Sequence record: OZ346212.1
Source: a phage
Strand: one strand, 5' to 3'
DNA: 64,000 bases
In this document: positions 11,301-52,698 of the stretch, piece by piece
Layout of the letters: every line of letters starts with the position of its first letter
Numbering within the stretch: the stretch's first letter is position 1
Made by a program: the position numbers and the translations under genes
Notes under the pieces: generated by a model
What the model saw: only the letters and a program-made list of their open reading frames with translations
Told to the model about the DNA's origin: nothing
Database searches by the model: none

Positions 11301-13947
11301 ATCCATGTCCATGCAAATTCCGGTAACAAACGGATACAAACGTGTTGTGATGATCATTAAGTGCGACCTGATAGGTAAACAAGTTCTTGCAGAAAACGGG
11401 ACATCCACACATCCTTTTGAGATCGCTCTGCACTATCAGTTTGCTGACTCACCTTTTGCAGGGGATAAGAGAATATCTGATACAGACGCACAGCGTTGTA
11501 AGAAAGTATTGTTGGGTGCAGGTTGGTGGTGGTATGAGTTTGATTTAACAGACAAATTCACCGACACGTCTAAAGTTGTAACAGGACTTCGTCTAGACCT
11601 TGGCGAGAACATGCACAAAGCTGTTTGTGATGGCACCTATGGTGACCCTACAATATACCTAAAATATGTTTCTTTTGAGCATCCGGAAGATGTTGTCTAC
11701 GGTCCAAAACTGAGATTGTTTGGCAGCTGGATTGCAAAAGATAGGGTAGGCATGGGTAAGAAGGTAAGAGGGTTCTTGGTTGATGCAGGAACAGAAGACA
11801 TGCTGGTTAATGCAGTATGGCCTGAATTACCTGGGACTCAGTGGGACAACTCAGCCAAATCTATAAACTGGTTTAACATTCATAGGGCCATGTGGACCAC
11901 TAACTGCTACTTGTGGAGAGAGCTTAACGATCAGGCCTTTGGATTCAGCGAGGGTAGAAGGATGGCGATCATTTGCTGGACAACACTGCAAAGATGTTAT
12001 GACCATGACTATGAGATTGGAGGCAGGGCATGGAAAAATATCAGGGATAGAATCATAACCAATTTTGCAGACGACAACGGTGGTGGAGCACATAACTTTG
12101 GCACAAGCCGACTCATCCATTTGAACGGATCCTCAGCCTACAAGAAAGAAGGTTACTCTGGGTCTATGATCGAGCGGGGTCTGGTGAAAGATGCTCGCGT
12201 ATTGATGGGCCAGCAACTTGCTGCCGCAGTAGGTCCCAGCGCAGTGCAGTCGGTTAAACCAGCGTGGTTCGATATTCCATTGTGGTCACCCGGAACACCG
12301 GGAACTGCTGCAATCAACCCTACCACTGGGGATCTGGAAATCTCCTGGGAAGACCTGAAGCAGGTCGGTGGTTGGGACAAAACAGGGTATCAGGTTCAAT
12401 GGTGGAGGGCTGACGGATCTTTAGCCGCTGATGAGTTTGTTAAGGACAATTTCTACACTATGTCCTCTGCAAAAGCACAGCAATTATTTGGTCAGGCAAC
12501 TCCGTCAACGATCACCATGTCTATGTGCTGTAAAGACAACAGGACTGGAGCTTTGGGGCCAAGGGTTGCTAAAGTTTTCTCAGGTATTAAATGGAATCTA
12601 CCTGTCCAAAGTATTTCATGGAAGCAAATAGGTGATAACAAGCTGCTGGTTACCCCTGCCTGTCAGTTCAACGCAACTCTTAACGTTGATCCTGCTGTTG
12701 CGGCAAACTCAGCTAAAGCTTCTGACTTCTCTGTGTCTAACACTGCTATGGCAGATGTGAGGAAGATTGACACGCTGAACGCCAGAATTACCTGTAAAAA
12801 CACTTATGGCACATTCCAAATCATCAACAACTTCACAGATGCTGATTCTAAGGTAGTGAGGACAGCAAGCCAGACTCTGAGTTTAGGAACTCTGGCCTAT
12901 GCGGCCCTGATCACCGAACAGTCGGCAACACTCCAAGGAGGTGGTGTAGGCAAGTCCATTACAACACCTGTGTGGAAGCCAAATGAGTGGGTTGTGTTTG
13001 ATTTGACTGTGGACTTCTCCAGCGATAATAACTGGACATGGGTAAGGAATTGTTTGTCACAGTTGATGGGCGGTCCAAGCTCCGTTAGTGATAGTCACGA
13101 CTCTACTGACCCGAGTGTGTTCCAGGTAGGTAAAACTCACCCAGAGACTGGAGAAACGTTGCCTGACAGGAAGTATGCTTTGGTTTGCATCTCTTACGGG
13201 AAGGCAGATGTCGCCTTCTCAGGGACACACACTTATAACGGAACCTACAACTTCTCAAGGAAGTATAGTCTCAAAGCAGGGAACATTATAGACGAGGTTG
13301 GTGCGCTGTATAATCCGGGCAACGGCATAGGGATTGTTGGTGGTAAACTGCAGATGCAGGAACCTTCTATTACCCCTTCCAACGTATCCGGGATTAGAAA
13401 GACTTGGGAAAGTAGTAATACCAACATTGCAACAGTGGATGCCACCACAGGACTGGTAACATTTAAAGCTACTGGGAATGTCACCATAAAGTTTGTAGTT
13501 ACTGATGATGTAGGGCGCAAAACGTCTTCAACATCTTTTACTGTCAAACAGATGGCACCACAGTGGAGAATGTGGATAGGTACAGCAACAAACGGGGCAT
13601 ACCCTAATCCGTCAGGTACTTCTGGTATGAAGACTTTCTCTACAAGCAAACCGATGGAGTACGGCAGCGGTCCTAAGGTAGGGCAGATGGTGTACTTTGG
13701 TGCGTATATTCCTGAAATTATAGGGCTTCCTAGAAGTCAGCTTCAGTTGCTGTTTGGGGCTGGTGTTGACGATCTTGCCACTTTCGGGTATAGCGACAAC
13801 ATCGAGGCTGCAAGGAGTTCAGGATGGGTAGGGTTCAGAATGGAGTCTGGAAAGGAAGGCAGGATTCTAGGGACAGCCTCTATAGGTGTTATGTTCCCTG
13901 GTGACCAGCAGTATCGTCTAGAAGCCTACGCAACCTTTTCTCGTTAA
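8311..13947 (+). CDS. giant multi-domain structural protein (1878 aa), putative tail fiber/adhesin with RCC1-like, FN3-like and Big_2-like segments
   Basis: Single uninterrupted ORF; N-terminal repeats (GYNKFGECRTGD, YGSGNNTYGSLHVD) resemble RCC1 propeller blades; near C-terminus ...IRKTWESSNTNIATVDATTGLVTFKATGNVTIKFVVTD matches the bacterial Ig-like group 2 pattern. Confidence 0.8.
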   Translation: MLPIPLLKLGRHFLDKRGGIKELAVLSYPIDNSDGTSNTVSYVNSLAILFDDGQLNITGYNKFGECRTGDRSPINYPSETAWNVDHVWRADRAFVIRTFDNQFFYIGCTAGLIGSTAAGGNDVCVNEWTPLPEQIVKGLHLDTHPERLIEVMGGINNTVWVIAEAEGTGILNLYGSGNNTYGSLHVDKNQHATPVKIGETSENPETGPWKNPSINCEVHDNSVIFGGPRGFWIAGYDFLRNNSRNDLVWPPVQITRNDLRGIPADEEWKGFMCGPNGAVIATQRMHRPDDQQLVNVFYGQNIWGDDTWRELNITYTHEVMMARGYGTSGIFFNNGTKQYRGFSRNLCNDIGAQSANNSPRADFIHYQALATAKYVEQRLPVSWTESVYFQGIHREGFLGTFTVVNGKLWWSGIPRGSFTGSNNLFGGRLNSQGFTEVPENWYKNVPVDSWGVDDIFDVNGVSSVSNIYIGDTVKMKLKPQPEGATFIIDKIELVNAAGTVVTDANYQFSTNWNHGGANEVVVTQYNRNVNRRGLYSVKITYHDKHGTGRTHTTRTLNWNTIVPAYPSNGKWHTVGRNKQFHVNDTVYFGLNGTQPAVEGDTSYMVRLHRMDAGSVTYDVTQEIYDQRRATYDNIVKTQALWEFNPNGKGGKMLQVNEQNGTSLTVHEHPDPWPDPGKPHPGARTLKIVSHDAGYFGIRWEATVRYVDGTTNNIGITLGGTSEDSSLKIAYTPRGISIDNMDVVRNGYGDVNVKVTLGEHLGGERIIMYAFDHDPRTNGTYANQAWSYLINAPEPNTKEFYYGMKRDVCKKTGTHDWIAICVKDERTAWDEPVNRWFIGIPTRSDKYVAEYIVCMGGTNLNMCWNEDVNKYSDYDYMRDYSCNLWFNQTTGYPPRQARVNPAIFTDTQVFLTKQANEVQTFKNKYDPNKWFYNCYGAFFWGPGELPGGGSCLNEATYASDYIMGQVKKYKIIPGPETLGNAVDPYIIMTALRSNMDGTSMSMQIPVTNGYKRVVMIIKCDLIGKQVLAENGTSTHPFEIALHYQFADSPFAGDKRISDTDAQRCKKVLLGAGWWWYEFDLTDKFTDTSKVVTGLRLDLGENMHKAVCDGTYGDPTIYLKYVSFEHPEDVVYGPKLRLFGSWIAKDRVGMGKKVRGFLVDAGTEDMLVNAVWPELPGTQWDNSAKSINWFNIHRAMWTTNCYLWRELNDQAFGFSEGRRMAIICWTTLQRCYDHDYEIGGRAWKNIRDRIITNFADDNGGGAHNFGTSRLIHLNGSSAYKKEGYSGSMIERGLVKDARVLMGQQLAAAVGPSAVQSVKPAWFDIPLWSPGTPGTAAINPTTGDLEISWEDLKQVGGWDKTGYQVQWWRADGSLAADEFVKDNFYTMSSAKAQQLFGQATPSTITMSMCCKDNRTGALGPRVAKVFSGIKWNLPVQSISWKQIGDNKLLVTPACQFNATLNVDPAVAANSAKASDFSVSNTAMADVRKIDTLNARITCKNTYGTFQIINNFTDADSKVVRTASQTLSLGTLAYAALITEQSATLQGGGVGKSITTPVWKPNEWVVFDLTVDFSSDNNWTWVRNCLSQLMGGPSSVSDSHDSTDPSVFQVGKTHPETGETLPDRKYALVCISYGKADVAFSGTHTYNGTYNFSRKYSLKAGNIIDEVGALYNPGNGIGIVGGKLQMQEPSITPSNVSGIRKTWESSNTNIATVDATTGLVTFKATGNVTIKFVVTDDVGRKTSSTSFTVKQMAPQWRMWIGTATNGAYPNPSGTSGMKTFSTSKPMEYGSGPKVGQMVYFGAYIPEIIGLPRSQLQLLFGAGVDDLATFGYSDNIEAARSSGWVGFRMESGKEGRILGTASIGVMFPGDQQYRLEAYATFSR

Positions 13948-19988: not shown

Positions 19989-21029
19989 TTATTTAACGTG
20001 TTTGAAAATACCTGCCAACTCGGTCATTGTCATGCGGGTGGTCTTCATAAGATCTGTCATAGCTTTCTCCATAATTGGAGATACTACCATAAAGTTTCCT
20101 TTAGTGAAACCTTTATTCCAGTCGGTCACCAACAGGGGTTTAAGTCCAGCTCCAAGACGTTCACCAGTTAAAGCACAGCATTTGCGAATATACGAACTCT
20201 TAAATTGGCTGAACGACAGATCAACTTTCATACCTACATCGTAGAACGTTTGACAATAGAAAGTGTAAGCTTTGGCAATCTCAACATCATCAGGTAGTGC
20301 AGGAACCTCTTCTGTAAGCTCCTCTTCGACCTCCTGAGTCTCTTTTTCCTCTTCATGCACCTGTTGCGTCATTTCTTCAATCTCTTCTGTGATAGGCTCG
20401 TTTACAATGTCGGAAATGTGCTTCTTGGGTGCACGATAAGTAACTTTAGACATCGGTAGCATATCTTCCTCCTCTTCTTCGTCAAAGAGTGCTAGTTTAT
20501 CCTCTTCCGTTCCATATTGCAAGATGAAATCTTCAAAAGTATAATCACCTTTCAATTTCTCCATACGCTCTTCGCTCAGGTGGAGCATCATCTGCTGGAC
20601 AATTTTTCGATCAGTTTCGTCTTTAATCAAGACTGCAGTCTTTTTATCTACCAGACAGTCCTTTAGAGAGTTGCATCTCAATCCCACCACACAACAGTTA
20701 TCAACCGCATAAGGACCTTCATCATCTATCCGCTCCAGAGATGGGTAGAAAGGATTCCCCAGCCCGTTTTCATCTGTGTGCATGTCAAAAGGTATAAGGG
20801 TATAGTCGCATACTCCATCTCCTAAAAGTTTTTTACCAAATAGGAGGTATTCTTCCCATGACAGGTCGAACTCTATATCTCGTTTCCGTGCGTTATTCTG
20901 TTTGCGTCTATATTTTTTGAGCAAGCGCTCTAACTCTTCTGGTGTATAATATTTTTCAAGATTCATGAGTCGTCTCTCGTGCTCTGTAAGTGAAGAAATC
21001 GTATCAATTGTCTCAACAGATGTCAACAT
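19989..21029 (-). CDS. hypothetical protein with two related Cys-containing domains and an acidic linker (346 aa)
   Basis: ATG 21029 preferred over TTG 21032; internal duplication (...PSLERIDDEGPYAVDNCCVVGLRCN... and ...CCALTGERL...NFMVVSP...); internal ATG sits in a 29-bp repeat shared with 22292..22320. Confidence 0.6.
   Translation of the reverse strand: MLTSVETIDTISSLTEHERRLMNLEKYYTPEELERLLKKYRRKQNNARKRDIEFDLSWEEYLLFGKKLLGDGVCDYTLIPFDMHTDENGLGNPFYPSLERIDDEGPYAVDNCCVVGLRCNSLKDCLVDKKTAVLIKDETDRKIVQQMMLHLSEERMEKLKGDYTFEDFILQYGTEEDKLALFDEEEEEDMLPMSKVTYRAPKKHISDIVNEPITEEIEEMTQQVHEEEKETQEVEEELTEEVPALPDDVEIAKAYTFYCQTFYDVGMKVDLSFSQFKSSYIRKCCALTGERLGAGLKPLLVTDWNKGFTKGNFMVVSPIMEKAMTDLMKTTRMTMTELAGIFKHVK
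20431..20459. repeat. 29-bp sequence identical (inverted) to 22292..22320, includes an ATG
   Basis: Reverse complement of 20431..20459 = TACCGATGTCTAAAGTTACTTATCGTGCA = 22292..22320. Confidence 0.8.
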
Positions 21030-27644: not shown

Positions 27645-27982
27645 GTTTGTGGAGAAATATCGTTAACTACGTGTGTGGCAATCCGACTCCTGAAGAGAAG
27701 GATGTTGTGATTCACGATTTTACTAAAAGATCTCGTGAAAAAGATCTACTGCTAACAAAGGTGACTGATAAAGATCCTGCAGTAGGGGACTGGGCAGGTT
27801 TTGCGTTTACATCGGACAAATACACCTTTAACAAAGGTGACTACCTTGTTGTGGATTTTAACGAAGACATTGAGGGTGCTGAACCTTACTATCAAACCCT
27901 TATTGTTGCAGGGTGTGTTAATCTCTCTGCAGGTATGCACAGTTTGATTCTTTTTGAGCTTGACTCTGAAGACCTTGAGTAG
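27641..27982 (+). CDS. hypothetical protein (113 aa)
   Basis: ORF overlapping upstream stop, SD GAGGGGG. Confidence 0.6.
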   Translation: MSLWRNIVNYVCGNPTPEEKDVVIHDFTKRSREKDLLLTKVTDKDPAVGDWAGFAFTSDKYTFNKGDYLVVDFNEDIEGAEPYYQTLIVAGCVNLSAGMHSLILFELDSEDLE

Positions 27983-28043
27983 TAAGATGTGAGTATAAAG
28001 GGGAGGCACTCCTCCCCACAAAAACTAAGGAGAGCACCAAACG

Positions 28044-29369
28044 ATGAGTAAAACCAAATTAGAACTAACCTGGATAGGTAAAAACGAGCGCAAAAAGTTA
28101 GAGCCGCACATTTTGTTAGAAGATTCTAGCAAGTCTTACCACAGCCAGAAAGTGACCGAAAACGATATTTTTGATAATAAACTGATTTTTGGAGATAACT
28201 TATTAGCATTGAAGGCGCTAGAGCAAGAGTATGCAGGCAAAGTGAAGTGTGTTTACATAGACCCGCCATTCAATACCGGGAGGGCTTTTGAGCACTACGA
28301 TGATAGCCTGGAGCATTCCATTTGGCTGGGCTTAATGAGGGATAGGTTAGAAATAATTCGTAATCTTCTAAGTGATGATGGGGTAATATTCGTTCACTTA
28401 GATGATTGCGAAATGGCGTATTTAAAAGTTTTGATGGACGAGATTTTTGGTCGTGCAAATCAGTTAAATACCATATCGATGACCACAAATTCCCCTTCGG
28501 GATTTAAGGCAACAGGAGCCACAGTTTTCTCCACAGCAAACTTTTTGCTTGTATATGCAAAAGATCGCACCCAGAAACCGCTTAATAAAATCTATATACC
28601 TAAAGGGTACGATACAGGATATAACAAATACCTATTAAACCCGGATGACCATTATAAAAATTGGACGTGGTGCAGTATTGCCGATGCGTTTGCAAAGGCC
28701 AATGGCTATAAGGATGCAAAAGAAGCCAAGAAAAAACTGCCTGACACATTCGATGATGAATTAGCACAATTCGCAATTGATAATGCAGAACGTGTATTTC
28801 AATCTGTTGCAATTGGTGGTGGTGCTAAAATAAAGAGAAAAGAAACTATCGAGAAGTCAAAGAAAGATAGGGATAAGGTTTATGTACATCCAAATGAGGA
28901 TGTTGAAGGATTTTATATCGCAAATGGTAGGCAAATGGTCTTTTACTCCAATAGGCTTTTGGAAATTGACGGTGAGATGCAACCTGCGGAACTAATAACT
29001 GATGTTTGGACAGACATTAGTTGGAATGGAATAGCAAATGAAGGCGGCGTTAGTTTCAAAAATGGGAAAAAACCAGAAGCGCTTTTGAAGCGGATTTTCG
29101 AAATGTGTACGCGAGAAGGCGATTTGGTATTGGATTCATTCGGTGGTTCGGGAACTACTGCTGCTGTAGCTCACAAGATGAAAAGACGTTGGATCTCAAT
29201 CGAGCTAGGTGATCATTGTCATACCCATATTATTCCGCGCTTAGAAAAAGTGATCGATGGCGAAGATCAAGGTGGTATTTCTAAGTCTGTAAGCTGGCAA
29301 GGTGGTGGTGGCTTCCGTTATTACAAACTCACCCCGGCCTTAGTTGCGAAAGATAAGTCTGATCAATAA
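28044..29369 (+). CDS. DNA methyltransferase, N6-adenine/N4-cytosine class, beta-type motif order (441 aa)
   Basis: Catalytic motif IV IDPPFNTG precedes AdoMet motif I LDSFGGSGTT; SD AAGGAGAG. Confidence 0.8.
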   Translation: MSKTKLELTWIGKNERKKLEPHILLEDSSKSYHSQKVTENDIFDNKLIFGDNLLALKALEQEYAGKVKCVYIDPPFNTGRAFEHYDDSLEHSIWLGLMRDRLEIIRNLLSDDGVIFVHLDDCEMAYLKVLMDEIFGRANQLNTISMTTNSPSGFKATGATVFSTANFLLVYAKDRTQKPLNKIYIPKGYDTGYNKYLLNPDDHYKNWTWCSIADAFAKANGYKDAKEAKKKLPDTFDDELAQFAIDNAERVFQSVAIGGGAKIKRKETIEKSKKDRDKVYVHPNEDVEGFYIANGRQMVFYSNRLLEIDGEMQPAELITDVWTDISWNGIANEGGVSFKNGKKPEALLKRIFEMCTREGDLVLDSFGGSGTTAAVAHKMKRRWISIELGDHCHTHIIPRLEKVIDGEDQGGISKSVSWQGGGGFRYYKLTPALVAKDKSDQ

Positions 29370-30095: not shown

Positions 30096-30578
30096 ATGTC
30101 AGATTTTATGTGGAAAGTAGGTTATGCCTCTCCTGAAATGTGCGAGGCTTGCTTTGTAAAAATAGGCCGCGAGGATATTGACAAAGTGATCTTTAAGTTT
30201 CGTGATGTATCTGTGATCGGCAACCGAGTGCTTAAGCACTTAAAGAATCTGAAGCTCACCAAAAAGAAGTTCTTCGGACTTTTCGAAGAGAAAGTTGATG
30301 CTTGGACCCATTGCATTCAGGAAGCTAAATCTCACTACAGTGCTATCGTTACCCCAGAACGGGTAGCCAAGATGGAAGGATTCATCAACAGCACAGAGTT
30401 TGAGTGCCTAAAGGCTGCCCTTAATAGTTATCCAAAGTGCCTCAAACACCTTGACAAGTATGTAGAAAAGGATGGGGAAATGTATCTCACCCTGGACGCA
30501 TATTATGAGATGCAAGAAATTTTAAATTTAGATTTGACATTGGTATCCACCGAGTATACAATAGGTATCCGGGTTTAA
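30096..30578 (+). CDS. hypothetical protein (160 aa)
   Basis: SD AAGGAGAGAG upstream. Confidence 0.65.
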   Translation: MSDFMWKVGYASPEMCEACFVKIGREDIDKVIFKFRDVSVIGNRVLKHLKNLKLTKKKFFGLFEEKVDAWTHCIQEAKSHYSAIVTPERVAKMEGFINSTEFECLKAALNSYPKCLKHLDKYVEKDGEMYLTLDAYYEMQEILNLDLTLVSTEYTIGIRV

Positions 30579-30584
30579 CACTAG

Positions 30585-30611
30585 GCCCTGCCCGAAAGGG
30601 TGGGGCTTTTT
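30585..30611 (+). terminator. rho-independent terminator with GAAA tetraloop
   Basis: GCCCTGCCC-gaaa-GGGTGGGGC followed by TTTTT; near-identical hairpin recurs at 41573. Confidence 0.7.
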
Positions 30612-30629
30612 GCATTAGGAGACAGCAAA

Positions 30630-41557: not shown

Positions 41558-41572
41558 CATTTAGTTAACATA

Positions 41573-41600
41573 GCCCTGCCAGAAAGGGTGGGGTATTTTT
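41573..41600 (+). terminator. rho-independent terminator
   Basis: GCCCTGCC-agaaa-GGGTGGGG followed by TATTTTTGT. Confidence 0.65.
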
Positions 41601-41619
41601 GTATAAGGAGATCTAAAAA

Positions 41620-45099: not shown

Positions 45100-45129
45100 T
45101 ACTTGAAAATTCCTGGCATATCAAGTATA

Positions 45130-45600
45130 AGGGGGATTTCTAAAATGGATTTCCTCCTTTTGATATTTCACCGGGCTGGATATTTTAAAATTCTTAGAAA
45201 ATCAGAAAATGGATCGAAAACTAAAATGGATTTTTCAGAGTAGGCGCGACAAGCTGAATAACTCATCCTATCGTTTGCACCATATTCCAGGCCACCATTA
45301 TAGATTTCCCACACATGCTAACCTCTCCCTACTAGAACTTCCTCCACTTACCCTTGACCTTCTATGGTAACAATCTAACCGCTATCTTGAAGTTGCGGTG
45401 CAGCTTTCCAGGTACTCGATCTACTTTTCATTTCAGGGCTTGGATTTTCTGAAAATTTTTCTCGATAAATTTCTCAGTACTCGATCTGTTTTTCGTTTTC
45501 TGAATCGGATTTTCTGGAAATCGTTCCGGCTCTCAACCTGAAATTTTTGGGGACGAAATCGATTTTTCGTTTTCAGAAATGGATTTTTAAAATTTCTATA
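45130..45600. repeat. AT-rich noncoding region with iteron-like short direct repeats
   Basis: AAATGGAT(T/C) x4, GTACTCGATCT x2, GGATTTTCTG x2, TTTCGTTTTC x2; no credible ORF. Confidence 0.6.
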
Positions 45601-45648
45601 TGGGAATATTTTAGTGGATACTGTTTTATAGGAAATTGTTACGGAGGG

Positions 45649-45666
45649 TAATTAGCATGCTAATTA
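45649..45666. promoter_or_regulatory. 18-bp perfect palindrome TAATTAGCATGCTAATTA (candidate protein-binding site)
   Basis: Perfectly self-complementary 18-mer in noncoding DNA. Confidence 0.5.
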
Positions 45667-45689
45667 AATTTATTAAATGCGAGGAGTTC

Positions 45690-45960
45690 TCATTTAGAAT
45701 TTTGAATGATAATCATTCTCGTTTGCAGAATAACGGGCAGGCCCGGTGATTGTCTCCCGGCCCCTGTTGCCCCGGCTTGTTATTATAGTATCACACAGGA
45801 CAAAGAAAGCAAGGACTTTTTGCATAAATTTTTAAATGATAATGATAACCGTTCTCATTTTATGCAGCGCCCATCCCCGGTGGTTGTCTCCCCCGTCACC
45901 GGTGCCTGCCGTCCTTTCGATATGTATATTGTGCCACCTGGCGGGGCCGCTGTCAACACT
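45690..45960. repeat. two tandem structured noncoding repeats with Fur-box-like head (ATGATAAT...) and conserved core CCCGGTG(A/G)TTGTCTCCC
   Basis: Copy 1 about 45692..45790, copy 2 about 45838..45960; track ORF 45706..46062 spans them but looks noncoding. Confidence 0.5.
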
Positions 45961-46283: not shown

Positions 46284-46311
46284 TTGACAACAAGGTTAAT
46301 CATGGTATTAT
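46284..46311 (+). promoter_or_regulatory. sigma70-like promoter (TTGACA-N16-TATTAT)
   Basis: Hexamers at 46284 and 46306. Confidence 0.6.
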
Positions 46312-46361
46312 TACCCTACAAGGTGAACAACACCGCACTAACCAGTAAAGAGGATAAATTT

Positions 46362-46559
46362 ATGAACGCATACGGGATCAAAGTACGTCGCAACACTCGC
46401 CAGGTGGTCACCAATCAAGTGATTTGCCGGGTGGATGTAACCATCAACAACGGGCAAGGCCTTTATAAATTTCGTCGCGGTCATAGCTATACCCTGCAAC
46501 AGCTTAATCGTTGCGCCCTGACAAAAGGTCAGATCAACCACTGGTTTAATAAAAAATAA
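46362..46559 (+). CDS. hypothetical small basic protein (65 aa)
   Basis: ATG 46362 with SD AAAGAGGA; track start 46284 lies in the promoter. Confidence 0.55.
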   Translation: MNAYGIKVRRNTRQVVTNQVICRVDVTINNGQGLYKFRRGHSYTLQQLNRCALTKGQINHWFNKK

Positions 46560-46623: not shown

Positions 46624-46809
46624 ATGAAAACCACTACCTTTAATTTTGATAATGCAGACTTTTCTTTTTCTGATGTCAAGAACTGCCGCCGTGATCGTGG
46701 ATTTTACAAGGCTTATAATCTGGTGGGCCTGGACGATGACAATAATTTGCACGAAGTAGCTGAGATCCAGCTTGACAGATTGGACGGGAAAGTACTAAAA
46801 ACTTATTGA
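46624..46809 (+). CDS. hypothetical small protein (61 aa)
   Basis: SD AAGAGGA upstream. Confidence 0.6.
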   Translation: MKTTTFNFDNADFSFSDVKNCRRDRGFYKAYNLVGLDDDNNLHEVAEIQLDRLDGKVLKTY

Positions 46810-46810
46810 G

Positions 46811-46857
46811 TTTATTTTTAGATGGCCTTGACACCAGGGCCATCAATAAAGTAAACT
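46811..46857 (+). promoter_or_regulatory. promoter-stem-loop cassette, copy 1
   Basis: TTTATTTTTAG-ATGGCC-ttgacaccag-GGCCAT-CAATAAAGTAAAC; -35 TTGACA sits in the hairpin loop, -10-like TAAACT 18 nt downstream. Confidence 0.6.
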
Positions 46858-46889
46858 AACCACAGTTGAGCGGAAAAGGAGGCTTAAAG

Positions 46890-47009
46890 ATGAGCACTAC
46901 ACGCCAGCACACAAAGGTAACCATCATCGTTTGCATCATTGGGTACATCCTGGCGCAAATGTTGATGGGTAGCGCCAACGGTGTCGCAAAATTTTTCTTA
47001 AACTTTTAA
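46890..47009 (+). CDS. hypothetical small hydrophobic peptide (39 aa), not in ORF track
   Basis: ATG with SD AAAGGAGG directly downstream of cassette copy 1. Confidence 0.4.
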   Translation: MSTTRQHTKVTIIVCIIGYILAQMLMGSANGVAKFFLNF

Positions 47010-47037
47010 TTGACAAGCTAACTTAAATCGATATAAT
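47010..47037 (+). promoter_or_regulatory. consensus sigma70 promoter (TTGACA-N16-TATAAT)
   Basis: Hexamers at 47010 and 47032. Confidence 0.7.
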
Positions 47038-47088
47038 AAGCACATAAACGGGAAAACTTCCCAGAACACACAAAAGGAGAAAAACACC

Positions 47089-47430
47089 ATGACTACTATG
47101 ACCGCCTCAGAAAAAGCTATGCAGATCGCTGAACTGAAAAAACAGATCGCAGACCTTGAGAATAAGATCGATAACTTTGAAATCGACGAGGACAAGTACG
47201 ACGAAAACTATGATGAATGGTTAGACGAGATCTACGGCGAAATTATGATCGGAAACATTTCTTTTCTTCCGTCGCGTATCCTCAAGGAGCTAGATCCTAT
47301 CGCTTACCGCTGCGGATTTAGCGACTACATCGACAGCCTGGATATTGAGGACGATGAAGAATACCAGGAATTACAGACAGAGTTAGAAGAAGCAAAAGAA
47401 GAGCTTGCGGAGCTGGAAGAAAACGAGTAA
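47089..47430 (+). CDS. hypothetical acidic coiled-coil protein (113 aa)
   Basis: SD AAAGGAGA; leader hairpin GGGAA-aac-TTCCC at 47050. Confidence 0.65.
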   Translation: MTTMTASEKAMQIAELKKQIADLENKIDNFEIDEDKYDENYDEWLDEIYGEIMIGNISFLPSRILKELDPIAYRCGFSDYIDSLDIEDDEEYQELQTELEEAKEELAELEENE

Positions 47431-47433
47431 GCT

Positions 47434-47478
47434 TATTTTTAGATGGCCTTGACACCAGGGCCATCAATAAAGTAAACT
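47434..47478 (+). promoter_or_regulatory. promoter-stem-loop cassette, copy 2 (identical to copy 1 over 45 nt)
   Basis: TTATTTTTAGATGGCCTTGACACCAGGGCCATCAATAAAGTAAAC. Confidence 0.6.
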
Positions 47479-47519
47479 TTATACTGTTAACACTGAACTA
47501 ATGCATAGGAGTTAAAACC

Positions 47520-47765
47520 ATGGCAGCACTAATCACCAAATATTATGCCCCTACCAACACCAAAAGCGCCCGTATCATGGTAAAAGGCTTCGGACGTAAA
47601 AAGGTGTACACCTGGGATTATGCCTTAGACACGGAAGACAACTACACCAACGCAATGACCGATTTTATTAATGAACTAAATAAGCAGATCTTGACAAGTT
47701 ATAAAGTGACCGATATTGCTTATATAGGTGAAGGCGGGATCTGTTTTGTAGGCATTGTGAAATAG
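47520..47765 (+). CDS. hypothetical small protein (81 aa)
   Basis: RBS context ATAGGAGTTAAAACCATGGC shared with gene 51771. Confidence 0.6.
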   Translation: MAALITKYYAPTNTKSARIMVKGFGRKKVYTWDYALDTEDNYTNAMTDFINELNKQILTSYKVTDIAYIGEGGICFVGIVK

Positions 47766-47815
47766 TTATTTTTTCGGTGGTCCTGGTTGCAGGGCCATCT
47801 ATAAAGATAATTTAT
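47766..47815 (+). promoter_or_regulatory. degenerate copy of the promoter-stem-loop cassette
   Basis: TTATTTTTTCGGTGGTCCTGGTTGCAGGGCCATCTATAAAGATAA aligns with the cassette but -35 and stem are degraded. Confidence 0.35.
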
Positions 47816-47839
47816 TAACACCATGAAAGGAGAAAGTAC

Positions 47840-48193
47840 ATGATCAGCGGGGCAAGTTTTATTATTGGCGCTATTGCTACGGCTTTAATTGTAAATAAGA
47901 TCCAGGATAAAAAGGAAAGAGGAAGTACCGCCCTTGCAGAATATCCATTTTGGGCATTCAACGATAACGAAGATTATATTATAAAGTATAAAAATAAAGA
48001 AGGTGACCAAGTAACACCGCGACCGATCCCGGCTTACAAAATGCAGGAAACACTATACCGCCTGGAGGCGGGTGGCGCAAAAATTGTAGACTTTTGGGGA
48101 TACGACCACACAGATCAGGAAGTTATAAAGCGCCGTATCCGGGCTATTCAGGCCAATATTGAAGTTAGCAAGGGGGGAATATATGAAAATTAA
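47840..48193 (+). CDS. hypothetical protein with N-terminal transmembrane helix (117 aa)
   Basis: SD AAAGGAGA; N-terminus ISGASFIIGAIATALIV. Confidence 0.6.
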   Translation: MISGASFIIGAIATALIVNKIQDKKERGSTALAEYPFWAFNDNEDYIIKYKNKEGDQVTPRPIPAYKMQETLYRLEAGGAKIVDFWGYDHTDQEVIKRRIRAIQANIEVSKGGIYEN

Positions 48194-48380
48194 TTTCGAG
48201 AAAATTGTAAAGCGCCCTCATGATTCCGAAGAGCTGCCAGAACGCCGCCAGCGTAACAATAAACTGAATAAGCCAAAAAGGTTTGGGAAGATCTGGCGTA
48301 ATCATTATGATCGTAAATTGCCCGGCCTACTTTTGGAACGTGAACGACAGGCAGAACGATACCGCCATAAAGACAAATAA
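48183..48380 (+). CDS. hypothetical small basic protein (65 aa)
   Basis: ATG 48183 with SD AAGGGGGG; overlaps end of upstream gene. Confidence 0.5.
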   Translation: MKINFEKIVKRPHDSEELPERRQRNNKLNKPKRFGKIWRNHYDRKLPGLLLERERQAERYRHKDK

Positions 48381-48388
48381 CAACCAAC

Positions 48389-48417
48389 GCCCCGCCATTG
48401 TGCGGGGCTTTTTATTT
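48389..48417 (+). terminator. rho-independent terminator
   Basis: GCCCCGC-cattgt-GCGGGGC followed by TTTTTATTT. Confidence 0.75.
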
Positions 48418-48537
48418 CTATCCTACGAATAGCGCCCCTGGTTGGCCCTGTAAGCGCCAAAAAGGCCCCCACCTATGCAATCGCCCCTTTAACCTGAAAA
48501 CATCGCCCAGGGCCGTTTCATGGCGTTAAAAATATCA

Positions 48538-48565
48538 TTGACATCGTCAACAGGTTAGCTATACT
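48538..48565 (+). promoter_or_regulatory. sigma70-like promoter (TTGACA-N16-TATACT)
   Basis: Hexamers at 48538 and 48560. Confidence 0.6.
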
Positions 48566-48597
48566 AACCACATCAAAGAGAGAAAGGAGTAAACGCC

Positions 48598-48858
48598 ATG
48601 CGTAAATTAAAAAATTTTGATAAAGTTGATGTTATCCTGAATAATTTTTACTACTGCAACAACAAGGCTATTTGGTGGCGTGATAGTTCCACCGATAAAG
48701 TCAGGGCGCGCTTTCTTCAGGGGCACTGGCAAGGCCGCCCAGTGATTAAAATCATGGGGCAATCGGTAGCGTTTAAAAATTGCCGCCGTGTTGATGACGT
48801 TGAGGAGATTTTAAACATTTTGCGCCACAATAATTTAAAAAATAGTGTTGACAAGTAA
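48598..48858 (+). CDS. hypothetical basic protein (86 aa)
   Basis: SD AAAGGAG upstream. Confidence 0.6.
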   Translation: MRKLKNFDKVDVILNNFYYCNNKAIWWRDSSTDKVRARFLQGHWQGRPVIKIMGQSVAFKNCRRVDDVEEILNILRHNNLKNSVDK

Positions 48859-48875
48859 GCCTCAATAAGTATACT
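48848..48875 (+). promoter_or_regulatory. sigma70-like promoter (TTGACA-N16-TATACT) overlapping the 3' end of the upstream gene
   Basis: Hexamers at 48848 and 48870. Confidence 0.55.
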
Positions 48876-48932
48876 TAAACACACAGGCGGGAAAACTTCC
48901 CGCCACTAACAAAGAAAATAGGAGAAAATATC

Positions 48933-49556
48933 ATGACCACCGTTAACATTACCGCAGGTTACAATTTATCTTTCGACGTGCTGACCGACGAACAAAAAGA
49001 AAAAGCCGTTGAAATGGTCCGCGAAAGAGAAGAACACAGCGGGGATAACTTTTTTGCAGAAAGTGTAATTGAATACTATAAAGAATATGTTTTTCCAGAG
49101 TATGGCCTTGAAGATACCGAAGTACATTGGTCAGGCTTTTGGTGCCAGGGTGACGGCGCGTCAATCAGTGCTGAAAACGTGGATTTAGAAAAATTTTTAC
49201 GTAAAGTAAAGGCCCTGACCAAGTTCCGATCAATTCGTCACTTGTTCGGCACAATGCACGATGGCGAGTTATCAGCCAGTGTTGAACGCGACAAGTACAG
49301 CCATTACAGCCATGAAAACACTGTAAGCGGGTACATTGATACCACTTGGCTAGATCTGACCGCCAAACAAGAAAACAAAGTGGAAGACCTGGAAGAACTG
49401 ATCACCGAGACGGTACGGGAGCTATCCCGCAAGGTTTACGTAGACCTGGAGGAGGCCTATCTAGAACAGTTCACCGCAGAAAACCTGATCGGCCTTATCG
49501 AGGCCAATGATTGGCGGTTTGATGTCGATGAATATGGTGAGATGACTTTTTCATAA
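48933..49556 (+). CDS. hypothetical acidic protein (207 aa)
   Basis: SD AGGAGAA; leader hairpin GGCGGGAA-aac-TTCCCGCC at 48886. Confidence 0.65.
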   Translation: MTTVNITAGYNLSFDVLTDEQKEKAVEMVREREEHSGDNFFAESVIEYYKEYVFPEYGLEDTEVHWSGFWCQGDGASISAENVDLEKFLRKVKALTKFRSIRHLFGTMHDGELSASVERDKYSHYSHENTVSGYIDTTWLDLTAKQENKVEDLEELITETVRELSRKVYVDLEEAYLEQFTAENLIGLIEANDWRFDVDEYGEMTFS

Positions 49557-49564
49557 ATAAAGTG

Positions 49565-49592
49565 TTGCAATAACCTAAAAACCTGCTATATT
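49565..49592 (+). promoter_or_regulatory. sigma70-like promoter (TTGCAA-N16-TATATT)
   Basis: Hexamers at 49565 and 49587. Confidence 0.5.
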
Positions 49593-49646
49593 AAAACTCA
49601 AGGGGGCAAGACGTTTGCCCCAACACAAAACAAAGAGGATAACATC

Positions 49647-50027
49647 ATGAAAAACACTACCAAGGCTATTGACACCGTTATGTTTAACCTGGTTACATTC
49701 CGTGAAGATATGAAAGATCTTCCTCGTGAAACAGTGTGCGACCATATCGAAAACTATCGCAAACTAATCAAAGAGTTGCCTTTAAAACGTGATCAATATG
49801 CGGCTAACGCCATGCTTAATGCCATGATCAAAAAGATGATCCAGTGTGATTTAACCCTGGCCTATGATTATGCAGGCGGTCGTTTTGCAGTATACAATCA
49901 GCCCGTGCCCGGTATGAGCACCACCGAAGAATTGCACGCGCTCAATCTAAAACAAGACGTGTGGGATAGTATGCCTCGCGTGGTGGTATGGGTAGAAAGC
50001 GGAAAGATTTACGGCGATAATTTTTAA
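49647..50027 (+). CDS. hypothetical protein (126 aa)
   Basis: SD AAAGAGGA; leader hairpin GGGGCAA-gacgt-TTGCCCC at 49603. Confidence 0.6.
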   Translation: MKNTTKAIDTVMFNLVTFREDMKDLPRETVCDHIENYRKLIKELPLKRDQYAANAMLNAMIKKMIQCDLTLAYDYAGGRFAVYNQPVPGMSTTEELHALNLKQDVWDSMPRVVVWVESGKIYGDNF

Positions 50028-50036
50028 TCAGGTAGC

Positions 50037-50063
50037 AGGCGGCATATTTGCCGCCTTATTGTT
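50037..50063 (+). terminator. terminator-like hairpin with weak U-tract
   Basis: AGGCGGCA-tatt-TGCCGCCT followed by TATTGTT. Confidence 0.5.
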
Positions 50064-50091
50064 AATCAGAACTGTAAAAGAGGTACATAGA

Positions 50092-50463
50092 ATGGAATTT
50101 ATTATTTTGGCTGTATTGGTTGCCTTGTTTAACGCCTGGATCGCTGGCAAGATGGGAAGATCCGCCTTTTTATGGTTTATTATATCTATTTTCCTGGGGG
50201 TGGTTGCAACTATTGTATTGGTTATCCTTGCAATTGTTGACAAGGGGAATAATAGAAAGGGTAAAGTATTTTCAGACCTGTACGACGCTCAAACGTTTGT
50301 CAACGCCTATTATAGTGATCTTCCAGTCTCCCTACGTTGCAGCCTTGCACAACAGGTTTTCGATGAAGCTAAAACCAGAGATCACGCCCATGAGATTTGT
50401 TTAACTGAGGCGGATCGCCTATTTGAGAGGAATAGAAAATATGTGGACCAGCCGTTTAAATAA
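50092..50463 (+). CDS. hypothetical membrane protein (123 aa)
   Basis: ATG 50092 with SD AAAGAGG; two hydrophobic helices near N-terminus. Confidence 0.55.
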   Translation: MEFIILAVLVALFNAWIAGKMGRSAFLWFIISIFLGVVATIVLVILAIVDKGNNRKGKVFSDLYDAQTFVNAYYSDLPVSLRCSLAQQVFDEAKTRDHAHEICLTEADRLFERNRKYVDQPFK

Positions 50464-50573
50464 TGCCACGTTAATTAACCCCTTTAGTAAAGATTTGAAG
50501 CCAGCCGCCTGGCGGGATGGATTCAATAACGAACGCTTTATTTTCAGGCCTGATCTTGAGGAATTTTATAACA

Positions 50574-50699
50574 ATGGATCGAACAACAGCGGAGATAATT
50601 TTTCTTGTGGTGTGTGTCGTGATAGGACTCCTGGGGGCCATTGTAGATCGCGTCACTACTACCAGAAGGAAAGGGGGAGACGATGACAACCAAGGATAA
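50574..50699 (+). CDS. hypothetical small membrane peptide (41 aa)
   Basis: Internal ATG of track ORF 50517..50699; hydrophobic helix IIFLVVCVVIGLLGAIV; start uncertain. Confidence 0.35.
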   Translation: MDRTTAEIIFLVVCVVIGLLGAIVDRVTTTRRKGGDDDNQG

Positions 50700-50802
50700 G
50701 CCCCGCACCGATAAGGTGCGCCGTGTTATGGTATGGCTTGAGATCATCGCCCTTGAAATATTGTTAGGCGTAGGGATGTATTTTATCTCTGTAAGTAACT
50801 GA
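50683..50802 (+). CDS. hypothetical small membrane peptide (39 aa), not in ORF track
   Basis: ATG preceded by AAGGGGGAGA; hydrophobic helix; followed by terminator. Confidence 0.4.
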   Translation: MTTKDKPRTDKVRRVMVWLEIIALEILLGVGMYFISVSN

Positions 50803-50806
50803 TAAC

Positions 50807-50838
50807 GGCCCCCGATCCCTGGGGGGCCTAACTTTTTT
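50807..50838 (+). terminator. rho-independent terminator
   Basis: GGCCCCC-gatccct-GGGGGCC followed by TAACTTTTTT. Confidence 0.7.
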
Positions 50839-50861
50839 CAAAAAATTTTTCTTCCGGGGTG

Positions 50862-50890
50862 TTGCAATCCGGTCCTGAATATGGATAATA
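50862..50890 (+). promoter_or_regulatory. sigma70-like promoter (TTGCAA-N17-ATAATA)
   Basis: Shares AATATGGATAATA with promoter 51679. Confidence 0.5.
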
Positions 50891-50945
50891 ACAATCAACG
50901 GGGAAACATCCCCACCAACACAAAAACCAGAAAGGAGAAACAAAA

Positions 50946-51146
50946 ATGAGCAACAATATCCGCGTTATTAACTTCAAAAAAGAAGAAAAAATTGCCGTGC
51001 TGATTGACGGTCAAGAAATCTTCAAGGGCGACTATGAAGATCATCAAACGGCGATTAGTATCACTCGCGTGATTGGTTACCATAATTTTTACCCCCAAGG
51101 CGCTGAGGCGGCGGTTAAACGAATCAAAGAGATTGTAGGCCTGTAA
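50946..51146 (+). CDS. hypothetical small protein (66 aa)
   Basis: SD AAAGGAGA; leader hairpin GGGGA-aaca-TCCCC at 50900. Confidence 0.6.
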   Translation: MSNNIRVINFKKEEKIAVLIDGQEIFKGDYEDHQTAISITRVIGYHNFYPQGAEAAVKRIKEIVGL

Positions 51147-51148
51147 AA

Positions 51149-51194
51149 TTTATTTTTAGATGGCCTTGACTCTAGGGCCATCAATAAAGTAAAT
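51149..51194 (+). promoter_or_regulatory. promoter-stem-loop cassette, copy 3
   Basis: TTTATTTTTAGATGGCCTTGACTCTAGGGCCATCAATAAAGTAAAT; differs from copies 1-2 at 3 positions. Confidence 0.6.
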
Positions 51195-51239
51195 TTAAAC
51201 CCTGTTAAAATACCACGCAGTTAACAAGGAGTAATGATC

Positions 51240-51539
51240 ATGTTTATCCAGGCTAATAATCTTTATTTCTTTGATGGTCAGATCGTAGATGGTGTGGAAG
51301 TGGAGATCACTGGGTGCCCTGGTGGTCAGGCTATGACTTTTCGGAATAATGCCTTTGATGATTCTCATATCGTTATGAGAATGGAAGTTACAAAGCTGGA
51401 CGACAAGAAAACGCTCATTGACTATTCCGTGAAAGATCATCCAGACTACCACATGATCTATGGTGATTTGTGCATTGTTGACCGTGACAAGGTGGGCGGC
51501 ATTGTGATCGCTATTGTGAACGATGTTTTCTCTGTATAG
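51240..51539 (+). CDS. hypothetical protein (99 aa)
   Basis: ATG 51240 with SD AAGGAG. Confidence 0.55.
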   Translation: MFIQANNLYFFDGQIVDGVEVEITGCPGGQAMTFRNNAFDDSHIVMRMEVTKLDDKKTLIDYSVKDHPDYHMIYGDLCIVDRDKVGGIVIAIVNDVFSV

Positions 51540-51597
51540 TTCCGGCAAATGATGCAAAATAAGGCCCCTAGCAGGGCCTACAGCGATATAATCACAT

Positions 51598-51632
51598 AAA
51601 GGCCATGCAACCGCATGGCCTTTATTATTTTG
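51598..51632 (+). terminator. rho-independent terminator
   Basis: AAAGGCCATGC-aacc-GCATGGCCTTT followed by ATTATTTTGG. Confidence 0.8.
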
Positions 51633-51678
51633 GCGTTACAGCGGCCCCAAGGCGCTTAAAAATTTTTTAAAGAAGTAC

Positions 51679-51707
51679 TTGCATCAAGCCCTACAATATG
51701 GATAATA
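51679..51707 (+). promoter_or_regulatory. sigma70-like promoter (TTGCAT-N17-ATAATA)
   Basis: Hexamers at 51679 and 51702. Confidence 0.5.
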
Positions 51708-51717
51708 GGACGTGTCA

Positions 51718-51731
51718 GGGGGGGGGGGGGG
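51718..51731 (+). repeat. homopolymeric G14 tract between promoter and RBS of gene 51771
   Basis: 14 consecutive G, then a, gg, cccc. Confidence 0.9.
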
Positions 51732-51770
51732 AGGCCCCAATCATTAACCGGATAGATAGGAGTTAAAACC

Positions 51771-52055
51771 ATGGCTATTGTTACCGCTGGCGATGTAGTA
51801 GAAATGGAAGCAAAATACTTAAAAGCGGGTATGCATATCCTACGCAACGATCTTGAACTGGTCCTGACAATGGTTGACTATAACCCAGGGCAAGATTATC
51901 CAAGTGTTGACTACTTTTTTGAGTATGTTGATGAAGAGTTGAAAGAGGATGAGGCCTATTGCGGTGAGTTCTGCAACTTCTTTTGTCCTGATGAGGTTGT
52001 AAAGGTTATCTATCAACCTGGCGTAGCTTTCCCGCTGCACGCTATCAATAAATAA
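51771..52055 (+). CDS. hypothetical acidic protein (94 aa)
   Basis: RBS context ATAGGAGTTAAAACCATGGC. Confidence 0.6.
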   Translation: MAIVTAGDVVEMEAKYLKAGMHILRNDLELVLTMVDYNPGQDYPSVDYFFEYVDEELKEDEAYCGEFCNFFCPDEVVKVIYQPGVAFPLHAINK

Positions 52056-52060
52056 ACCTG

Positions 52061-52084
52061 GCGGGGCCGAAAAGGCCCCCGCCT
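52061..52084 (+). terminator. GC-rich hairpin (terminator-like, weak U-tract)
   Basis: GGCGGGGCC-gaaaa-GGCCCCCGCC directly after the stop codon. Confidence 0.45.
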
Positions 52085-52117
52085 GAAATTATGAAAAATA
52101 AAAAGAGGCAAACTATC

Positions 52118-52351
52118 ATGATGGAACAAATTAAACGCGCTGAGGCTATTAATGGCAATGTAATCTATTTTGTCAGCAAAAACGAAAAAGGCGTACCCTA
52201 TGCGGCGGTAATAGTACAGCCTGACGGCGATTATTGGTGCACTGTGTACGGCGCTTATTCTTTTGGGCGTCCAGTGCATGATAAAATTTTGAAAGTAGCG
52301 AACCCTACCGGGAAAAATATTACAGCAGAAAAATTTTTTGAAAAAAGTTGA
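52118..52351 (+). CDS. hypothetical small protein (77 aa)
   Basis: ATG 52118 with SD AAAGAGG. Confidence 0.55.
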   Translation: MMEQIKRAEAINGNVIYFVSKNEKGVPYAAVIVQPDGDYWCTVYGAYSFGRPVHDKILKVANPTGKNITAEKFFEKS

Positions 52352-52378
52352 CATGACCATATAAAACTGTAGTATATA
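52348..52378 (+). promoter_or_regulatory. sigma70-like promoter (TTGACA then AGTATA/TATATA)
   Basis: Consensus -35 at 52348; -10 register ambiguous (17 or 19 nt spacer). Confidence 0.45.
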
Positions 52379-52427
52379 AATCAAAGGGGGCAACAAGCCC
52401 CACCAACCACAAAGAGGATAAAAAATC

Positions 52428-52607
52428 ATGGCTATTATTGCAAAGACCGAGATCGTAGGCTTAGATTCTATTCTCCTCGCATATGAGGAAGCTATAGAAA
52501 TGTATGTGGTTTCCTATGGTGAGTATATCCGTGAATATGAATCTATTGATCTAGCTTTTGAATGTTATATTCGCCAGGTTAATAAAGCGTACGATGATTA
52601 TCGTTAA
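52428..52607 (+). CDS. hypothetical small protein (59 aa), not in ORF track
   Basis: ATG with SD AAAGAGGA downstream of leader hairpin GGGGC-aacaa-GCCCC at 52386. Confidence 0.5.
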   Translation: MAIIAKTEIVGLDSILLAYEEAIEMYVVSYGEYIREYESIDLAFECYIRQVNKAYDDYR

Positions 52608-52698
52608 AATAGTTTGACAACAAACAACCATCTAACAAAGCATAATACATAAGGTGGTAGAATGATCCGCCACCCGGAACAAAGAAGAGGTAAACACC

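Follow-up and report, generated by a model that had tools for sequence, protein, structure and literature searches.

Why do small phage genes that each appear to have a promoter of their own also share a short GC hairpin directly behind it? The question is raised by the stretch of phage DNA analyzed here (64,000 nucleotides (nt) of record OZ346212.1, called the window), in which an earlier note had reported five such hairpins on the + strand between 47050 and 52401. Our analysis gives about an even chance to the following answer: the hairpin is a stem-loop close to the 5' end of the RNA, which shields this end and leaves the ribosome-binding site (RBS) open, and it belongs to a portable cassette for early gene expression. 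Over its full length the window is 93-95% identical to many Vequintavirus (rV5-like) myoviruses of Escherichia coli. The five reported cassettes lie toward the far end of a long transcription unit on the + strand (~21.0-53.0 kb), which leads from a bidirectional promoter region through replication genes to a terminal block of small open reading frames (ORFs). These ORFs have no assigned function and most have a promoter of their own.

Five promoter-proximal hairpins and their leaders

Exact location of the parts confirmed all five hairpins, at 47050, 48886, 49603, 50900 and 52387 (Table 1). As the earlier note had stated, they are promoter-proximal: each lies 10-12 nt past the -10 hexamer of a sigma70-like promoter matching the consensus at 9-12 of 12 positions. 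The A/C-rich spacer and the conserved RBS that it had described were also found. The A/C-rich stretch after each hairpin is 24-32 nt long, the Shine-Dalgarno (SD) sequence is located 10-16 nt past the hairpin end, and all five leaders end in AAGGAG, TAGGAG or AGAGGA plus ATG. The distance from GGG to CCC among the cassettes of the window is 6, 7 or 11 bp.

We folded the leaders with RNAfold from the predicted transcription start to the AUG and calculated z-scores against dinucleotide shuffles. In each of the five leaders the 5' hairpin was the sole structure, with the SD and the AUG unpaired. The 5' untranslated region (UTR) is thus predicted to consist of a stable stem-loop (-5.5 to -14.6 kcal/mol) and an open remainder.

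That these genes are early and independently transcribed is suggested by the sigma70 consensus of their promoters. Where no terminator lies upstream, as in several cassettes, transcription probably also enters from the preceding gene. The rV5 genome paper lists promoters P174, P185 and P192 and is silent on structures 3' of them. The hairpins are unannotated in the records of rV5, where promoters are annotated, and of Murica, where RBSs and terminators are annotated.

Table 1. Coordinates of cassettes and leader hairpins in the window
Feature	Coordinates	Strand	Description
Cassette 1	47010..47091	+	TTGACA-16-TATAAT promoter 47010-47037 (12/12); 12-nt initial transcribed stretch, hairpin, AGAACACACAAAAGGAG leader; ATG 47089
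Cassette 1 hairpin	47050-47062	+	GGGAA-aac-TTCCC; -5.5 kcal/mol, z -1.7; weakest of the five
Cassette 2	48848..48935	+	TTGACA-16-TATACT promoter 48848-48875 (11/12), P185 of rV5 Table S4; ACTAACAAAGAAAATAGGAG leader; ATG 48933
Cassette 2 hairpin	48886-48904	+	GGCGGGAA-aac-TTCCCGCC; -14.6 kcal/mol, z -4.5
Cassette 3	49565..49649	+	TTGCAA-16-TATATT promoter 49565-49592 (9/12); AACACAAAACAAAGAGGA leader; ATG 49647
Cassette 3 hairpin	49603-49621	+	GGGGCAA-gacgt-TTGCCCC; -12.5 kcal/mol, z -3.3
Cassette 4	50862..50948	+	TTGCAA-16-GATAAT promoter 50862-50889 (9/12); ACCAACACAAAAACCAGAAAGGAG leader, U-free; intrinsic terminator upstream, 50807-50828; ATG 50946
Cassette 4 hairpin	50900-50913	+	GGGGA-aaca-TCCCC; z -2.7
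Cassette 5	52348..52430	+	TTGACA-16-TAGTAT promoter 52348-52375 (10/12), P174 of rV5 Table S4; ACCAACCACAAAGAGGA leader; ATG 52428
Cassette 5 hairpin	52387-52401	+	GGGGC-aacaa-GCCCC; -10.5 kcal/mol, z -2.75
Cassette 6	51679..51773	+	TTGCAT-17-GATAAT promoter; TAGGAG; ATG 51771
Cassette 6 hairpin	51718-51738	+	G14 run + AGG + CCCC; clear hairpin in orthologues
Cassette 7	27960..28046	+	TTGACT-17-TAAGAT promoter, 11 nt, hairpin, ACAAAAACTAAGGAG; ATG 28044
Cassette 7 hairpin	28000-28017	+	GGGGAGG-cact-CCTCCCC
Weak cassette	46284..46364	+	TTGACA-16-TATTAT promoter, 10 nt, hairpin, AAGAGGA; ATG 46362
Weak cassette hairpin	46322-46334	+	GGTG-aacaa-CACC; -4.4 kcal/mol, z -0.85
Leader hairpin	52653..52674	+	GGTGG..CCGCCACC; upstream of ATG 52699; promoter uncertain in the window

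Pairing, position and spread among phages

Orthologous intergenic regions were taken from GenBank phage records at 12 other Vequintavirus loci, using the flanks and leaving the hairpin out of account; in IMG/VR, relatives of the 207-aa protein yielded only 2 Vequintavirus loci. The hairpin is present in every orthologue variant, and its stem is either kept or compensated (G-C to G.U to A-U). Across the 12 loci, 61% of the loop columns are variable, with 22% of orthologues on average differing from the window, against 26% and 5% for the stem columns. Stems vary about as much as SD sequences and coding starts, and the -35 hexamers are invariant (0% of columns). This is the pattern expected of a structure in which the stem matters and the loop does not.

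At 47050 the hairpin is kept in 10 of 10 orthologue sequences, L002 having the form GGGA-gtaca-TCCC. The L002 counterpart of 48886 reads GGTGGGAA-caa-TTCCCGCC; here a C-G pair has become a U.G wobble and the loop is altered. At 49603 the L018 orthologue, from ECP32, has a remodelled hairpin, GGGGGCGAG-atga-CTTGCCTCC, that includes two G.U pairs. Orthologues of 50900 carry GGGGA-gctaa-TCCCC, GGGGA-gaca-TCCCC or GGGGAG-aca-CTCCCC: the loop is free, the stem is retained or longer, and a C insertion adds one G-C pair. A compensatory series is found for cassette 6, from GGGGG-cgg-CCCCC through GGGGG..CCTCC (G.U) to GGAGGT-gat-GCCTCC (A-U). Stems also differ inside a single genome (GGGAA/TTCCC, GGGGC/GCCCC and GGGGCAA/TTGCCCC). 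Because the stems differ within and between genomes, change in compensatory series and enclose free loops, the function would depend on pairing and not on a particular sequence.

The same data bear on the idea that the inverted repeat is a double-stranded DNA operator, bound by a dimeric phage repressor that closes early promoters. The palindrome is centred at about +10 to +15, a classical operator position, and recurs at many early promoters. However, the half-sites of a single genome differ in sequence and spacing, the stems show compensatory substitutions and tolerate G.T pairs, and some copies stand without a recognisable promoter (in alia upstream of 10933, possibly in the window at 52653). 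We regard an operator as very unlikely.

Our case for pairing rests on the shuffle tests and on the flank-retrieved orthologues. A loop-anchored pairing table was set aside, being circular for the inner 4 pairs on which the hairpins are selected. A count of G.U against A.C pairs that reached outward beyond the stems was distorted by the A/C richness of the flanks. The G-rich 5' arm was likewise rejected as evidence for strand specificity, palindrome polarity being equal on both strands.

We then compared the number of hairpins with that expected by chance. The + strand of the window has 7 stable hairpins that start 8-15 nt past a promoter, while random placement predicts 1.1; the - strand has 1 for 0.8 expected and shows no excess. 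The neighbouring - strand unit has strong promoters without a comparable GC hairpin. A second count took gene-proximal promoters whose first 45 nt include a hairpin at least as stable as -7 kcal/mol and compared them with dinucleotide shuffles. It gave 3 observed for 0.13 expected in rV5, 10 for 0.44 in alia, 10 for 0.54 in phi92, 13 for 0.83 in ESCO13, 6 for 0.36 in EJP2 and 4 for 1.1 in the window. Position is also restricted: of 66 distinct cassettes, which represent 6 phage genera or lineages, 25 have the hairpin start 10 nt past the -10 hexamer and 14 have it 11 nt past. If transcription begins at the usual 7th base, the predicted hairpin start is about +3 to +5.

It is hardly credible that these are chance inverted repeats or misread terminators. 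A consensus scan does list several of their reverse complements as terminator-like on the - strand, and the 47050 hairpin does not exceed its shuffles. Against this stand the 10- to 25-fold enrichment over shuffles in the five other genomes and the fixed position; moreover, T-runs are missing on either strand in Stephanstirmvirinae, and the opposite strand of the cassette block in the window is free of genes. On the sense strand, an intrinsic terminator was rejected because there is no U-tract: the hairpins are followed by the A/C-rich spacer, which in Vequintavirus has 56% A and 7% U against a background of 26-27% T. UUCG or GAAA loops occur in none of 49 distinct leader hairpins and in 7 of 20 rV5 terminators, and the true terminators of the region (rV5 Table S4) are separate from the leader hairpins.

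A sequence-only scan of IMG/VR for GCGGGAAnnnTTCCCGC returned 242 strand hits, mostly unrelated hairpins, with 34 terminator-like and only 5 cassette-like. Sequence alone is therefore undiagnostic, and it is the context that is diagnostic. With other stems, the cassette architecture is found in Stephanstirmvirinae (phi92, alia, ESCO13) and in the jumbo Asteriusvirus EJP2 (350 kb). The layout is more regular in Stephanstirmvirinae, where TTGACA-16/17-TAnnnT is followed after ~10 nt (gtatcacata) by GGGCGGCA-atag-TGCCGCTC or GGCGGGAAA-tgg-TTTCCCGCC, a short spacer and a AGAAGAGA-type RBS. In alia, phi92 and ESCO13 such cassettes precede at least 12 consecutive small genes. The EJP2 cassette reads TATAAT-gttttatatc-gaga-GCGGGAA-tgg-TTCCCGC-ctc; gag and ctc lengthen the stem, so that its base is again 10 nt past the -10. 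In EJP2 (L014), early promoters at 6000-12300 have in addition AGTACT palindromes flanking the -35 (aaaGTACTTGCAcAGTACTgaataa..TATAAT), upstream of a like leader hairpin.

The earlier proposal of a modular 5' UTR stands as a repeated unit of promoter, hairpin, open leader and RBS before unrelated small ORFs, and it is strengthened by the compensatory conservation in orthologues and by the presence in three phage lineages. One orthologous gene (49647 in the window, gp106 in alia, EJP2_514) has a different hairpin in each lineage, in each case in the "house style" of its genome. Cassettes that cross lineages are found at position 6906 of L020 and position 5447 of L001, both in Stephanstirmvirinae style, and as a copy in phage ime. 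From house style and cross-lineage copies it follows that evolution of the units is concerted inside a genome and that they are also passed from one genome to another. This pattern indicates that whole promoter-hairpin-gene units have been transferred between phage lineages. The L020 and L001 copies and a further one in L011 (- strand, 38925) are Vequintavirus cassettes in phi92-like or jumbo style, with forms such as gtatttcgta-GGGCGGCA-atga-TGCCGCTC and gtactacatagc-GCGGGAA-tac-TTCCCGC.

Such mobility could also mean that the motif works at the DNA level: the cassettes would offer stretches of homology through which small ORFs are shuffled, and the hairpin would have no role in RNA. The PeSL elements of T4-like phages are documented to act in this way (PMC2839356). 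The cassettes do cluster in a mosaic block of small ORFs, and one lineage's style turns up in another. The window and phage ime form a mosaic, with 99.9% identity over one 900-bp piece of the window, and the one indel examined between them (46858-47430) is flanked by two identical copies of a promoter repeat. That repeat is, however, another one, with its hairpin around the -35, and not the leader hairpin. Adjacent leader hairpins in the window share only GGG and CCC, which is insufficient for homologous exchange, and recombination leaves both the fixed distance of 10-11 nt from the -10 and the compensatory pairing unexplained. As the whole explanation we find it improbable, though a recombination role in DNA and a role in RNA could co-exist.

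The other repeat is about 45 bp long and lies at 46809-46857, 47430-47478 and 51147-51196, with a diverged copy at ~47766-47812. It consists of a T-run and a hairpin, GATGGCC-TTGACACC-AGGGCCATC, with the -35 TTGACA in the loop and a -10 TAAACT. Two copies are identical (0 expected by chance), and the 570-bp segment between them, which includes cassette 1, is absent there in ime. The Murica record annotates these repeats as terminators, despite no T-run after them.

A proposed stem-loop at the 5' end of the mRNA

Three functions had been offered for the shared leader: mRNA stabilisation, a processing site and a common regulator. Stabilisation fits best, since the stem sits at a fixed short distance from the predicted 5' end, its sequence is free, and the design matches that of T7 phi10 and ompA. 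A processing site found no support: RNase III requires longer stems than the 5-9 bp present. A shared regulator that reads a specific sequence is less likely, given that variation is greatest in the loops and that even one genome has stems of unlike sequence and length.

In the reading that we favour, the host sigma70 RNA polymerase would begin ~7 nt past the -10 and the stem-loop would form near the transcript's 5' end, at a predicted distance of 2-6 nt. In the cassette, a near-consensus promoter is followed by a purine-rich start, a GC stem-loop, an open leader, a strong SD and an ATG. After the stem-loop, ~20-25 nt of the leader are A-rich, in Vequintavirus also U-poor, and predicted to be unstructured. 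The base-paired 5' end would hinder RppH and the 5'-end-dependent entry of RNase E, while the stem-loop would lock up the sole G/C-rich stretch, so that the RBS would remain open whatever ORF follows. The outcome would be stable and strongly translated early mRNAs for small accessory genes, from a cassette independent of its context. We infer from these properties that the element acts as RNA and prolongs mRNA life.

A close parallel is the T7 phi10 leader. There, too, a strong phage promoter is immediately followed by a GC stem-loop, whose 5' arm is G-rich and whose loop is A/C-rich. We checked its sequence: the transcript starts with GGGAGACC-acaac-GGTTTCCC and continues, as in the cassettes, with an open leader and a strong SD. 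However, the T7 hairpin starts at +1 of a late promoter of T7 RNA polymerase and is described for one highly expressed gene. The hairpins studied here follow host sigma70 promoters by the predicted 2-6 nt, share no sequence homology with that of T7 and stand before up to nine small genes in the window, and before more in phi92 and ESCO13. The stem-loops of T7 phi10 and ompA are reported to protect from RNase E and raise expression (PMC2254391; PMC6146998). The passage of PMC6146998 that cites Mertens et al. 1996 gives a several-fold effect, also on other promoters.

Likewise, ompA and papA, studied by the Belasco laboratory, have stable 5' hairpins that act independently of sequence against 5'-end-dependent decay by RNase E (PMC3997798; PMC2254391). 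Unlike those of the cassettes, each of these hairpins belongs to one host gene, in which the 5' UTR is long and contains another protective element as well. In the cassettes, the stem is predicted to begin 2-6 nt from the 5' end. Protection of the ompA type is reportedly lost if several unpaired nt precede the stem, as Emory and colleagues are said to have found in 1992.

Several points weigh against this reading. The 47050 hairpin is weak (-5.5 kcal/mol), and 12 of 200 dinucleotide shuffles fold equally well. The promoters at 43723, 46563 and 48538, in or adjoining the block, have no hairpin (46563 and 48538 were checked by folding), which shows that the hairpin is dispensable for expression. 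RppH needs 2-3 unpaired nt; with 2-6 nt predicted ahead of the stem, both it and RNase E may still gain access. No mapped transcription start for any of these phages was found in the literature searched. Sense folds are better than antisense folds by a mean of 0.8 kcal/mol over 70 modules (p ~0.006-0.01), but on 48 distinct stems the difference has p 0.19, and the modules had been picked on the sense strand; wobble pairs thus do not decide between RNA and DNA. The depletion of U in the spacer is confined to Vequintavirus, the other two lineages having 21-24% U. Copies are also kin by descent and concerted evolution, so that their counts overstate the number of independent events. Finally, a simple stem-loop does little to obstruct scanning by RNase E (PMC11194081). 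In favour of the reading, RNase E disfavours sequence rich in C (PMC11194081), and the U-poor, C-containing Vequintavirus spacer would be a poor substrate for it, which fits protection of the mRNA without proving it. From what is generally known of initial transcribed sequences, the purine-rich first arm may also aid escape from near-consensus promoters, which likewise fits the reading without proving it.

An alternative at the RNA level is that the hairpin is recognised by a shared trans-acting RNA-binding factor of phage or host, such as a translational repressor of early mRNAs, the guide of a shut-off nuclease, or an N/boxB-like antitermination or pause element. In its favour, a GGGAA...TTCCC or GCGGGAA-nnn-TTCCCGC core recurs in three lineages, each genome has its house style, the position is fixed, and some cassettes have intrinsic terminators after them. 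In addition, the G-rich arm is the 5' one in 49 of 49 distinct leader hairpins compared with 11 of 20 terminators. The loops are nevertheless the most variable class (27 sequences among the 49), and a single genome can contain stems of different length (4-10 bp) and sequence and loops of different size. Movement of entire cassettes from one lineage to another, as at L020 6906 and L001 5447, can account for the shared core. Rfam returned nothing relevant, either at the gathering threshold over the whole window or at E up to 5 over 45.5-53.5 kb, and no boxA-like partner was seen. The hairpins of lambda nut boxB and HK022 put are similar in being small, promoter-proximal RNA structures of phage early transcripts, but boxB works only with a boxA partner and a GNRA-like pentaloop that is conserved, and the loops of the cassettes are hypervariable. 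Such a factor is an unlikely explanation.

The hairpin could instead act during transcription, either through a purine-rich arm that aids promoter escape or as a nascent structure that times a pause for ribosome loading. Near-consensus promoters are expected to be limited at escape, every copy has a G/A-rich 5' arm at about +4 to +12, and the hairpin ends shortly ahead of the SD. Escape, however, would need the purine-rich arm alone and not a conserved complementary one, and on reading the initial transcribed stretches we saw no conserved pause consensus or -10-like element. We hold this explanation to be quite unlikely.

The layout also recalls the PeSLs of T4-like phages. These are repeated composite motifs with an AT-rich stretch, a sigma70-like early promoter, a stem-loop of GGGG...CCCC type and an SD; they are dense in hyperplastic regions beside ORFans and have a genome-specific consensus. 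The window shares with them the repeated sigma70-like promoter, stem-loop and SD beside small ORFans in a plastic region. In a PeSL, however, the promoter comes directly after the stem-loop, which stops transcription arriving from upstream (PMC4122927), whereas the leader hairpins of the window lie downstream of the -10, inside the transcript, and have no U-tract. The second repeat of ~45 bp described above, at 46821-46856 and in its copies, is nearer in layout to the T4-type PeSL than the leader hairpins are.

A protection of 5' ends might have a specific reason in these phages. The ORF at 19992-20963 on the - strand, which adjoins the divergent promoter region, is Srd-like: it matches PHROG 1400 (E 2e-10) and PHROG 4592 (E 3e-13), labelled "Srd anti-sigma factor" and "decoy of host sigma70". 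Its best match, however, is to an HNH-endonuclease family, and it has no Pfam match. The rV5 genome paper calls gp11 Srd-like too. Srd of T4 stimulates RNase E on host mRNA (PMC4980113), and a similar protein would give a reason to shield phage 5' ends; this fits a protective stem-loop but does not prove it. One may go further and propose that the 5' hairpin is a mark of "self", possibly read by a factor, which exempts early mRNAs from Srd-stimulated RNase E, and that the whole unit passes among unrelated large coliphages as a plug-and-play cassette with which accessory genes are expressed. We consider this extension unlikely.

The proposed mechanism is known, but its repeated, promoter-coupled use on host-polymerase promoters in three lineages of large coliphages appears undescribed. 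The literature searched gave no description of the hairpins; the genome papers of phi92 and PVP-SE1 lie outside its coverage and may contain one. If the hairpins stabilise mRNA, they would represent a genome-wide natural version of the T7 phi10/ompA trick on host-polymerase promoters, common to three groups of therapeutic-type coliphages (rV5-like, phi92/phAPEC8-like and PBECO4-like jumbo phages). This would help to explain the strong expression of early accessory genes during the destruction of host mRNA, would refine annotation, and would provide compact, context-insulated expression parts for the engineering of phages and E. coli. It would also show that mobile regulatory cassettes, the idea behind PeSLs, are not limited to T4-like phages and can have a different layout.

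Further cassettes and neighbouring features

Beyond the five reported cassettes, the window holds up to four more, two clear and two weaker (Table 1). Cassettes 6 and 7 are the clear ones; the gene of cassette 7 encodes a homologue of a putative adenine methyltransferase. The cassette at 46284..46364 is a doubtful member because its z-score is only -0.85. The hairpin at 52653..52674 follows a possible promoter at 52614-52646, whose TTGACA and CATAAT are 21 nt apart in the window and 17 nt apart in phage inoa (L016), where 4 nt are deleted. Given this difference, the promoter may be weak or inactive in the window phage.

In the leader of the gene at 51771, the run of 14 G (51718-51731) is longer than in other Vequintavirus loci, which have ~5-9 G, some interrupted. 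Its length shifts the distance of the hairpin from the promoter. The run may be slippage-prone or a sequencing artefact.

Upstream of the block, 45100-45820 is a repeat-rich stretch of 720 bp without a convincing ORF. It contains direct repeats of 47-57 nt at a spacing of 65-74 nt and a recurring TTTCnnAAATGGATTT motif, and its counterpart in alia is annotated as repeat_region. This stretch may be an origin or another cis-acting site.

At 30534-30612, no more than 21 nt separate a strong promoter (TTGACA-17-TACAAT) from a strong terminator-like hairpin, GGCCCTGCCC-gaaa-GGGTGGGGC, with TTTTT added; together they could produce a short RNA or form an attenuator. A near copy of this hairpin lies at ~41570-41610, ahead of the gene at 41620.

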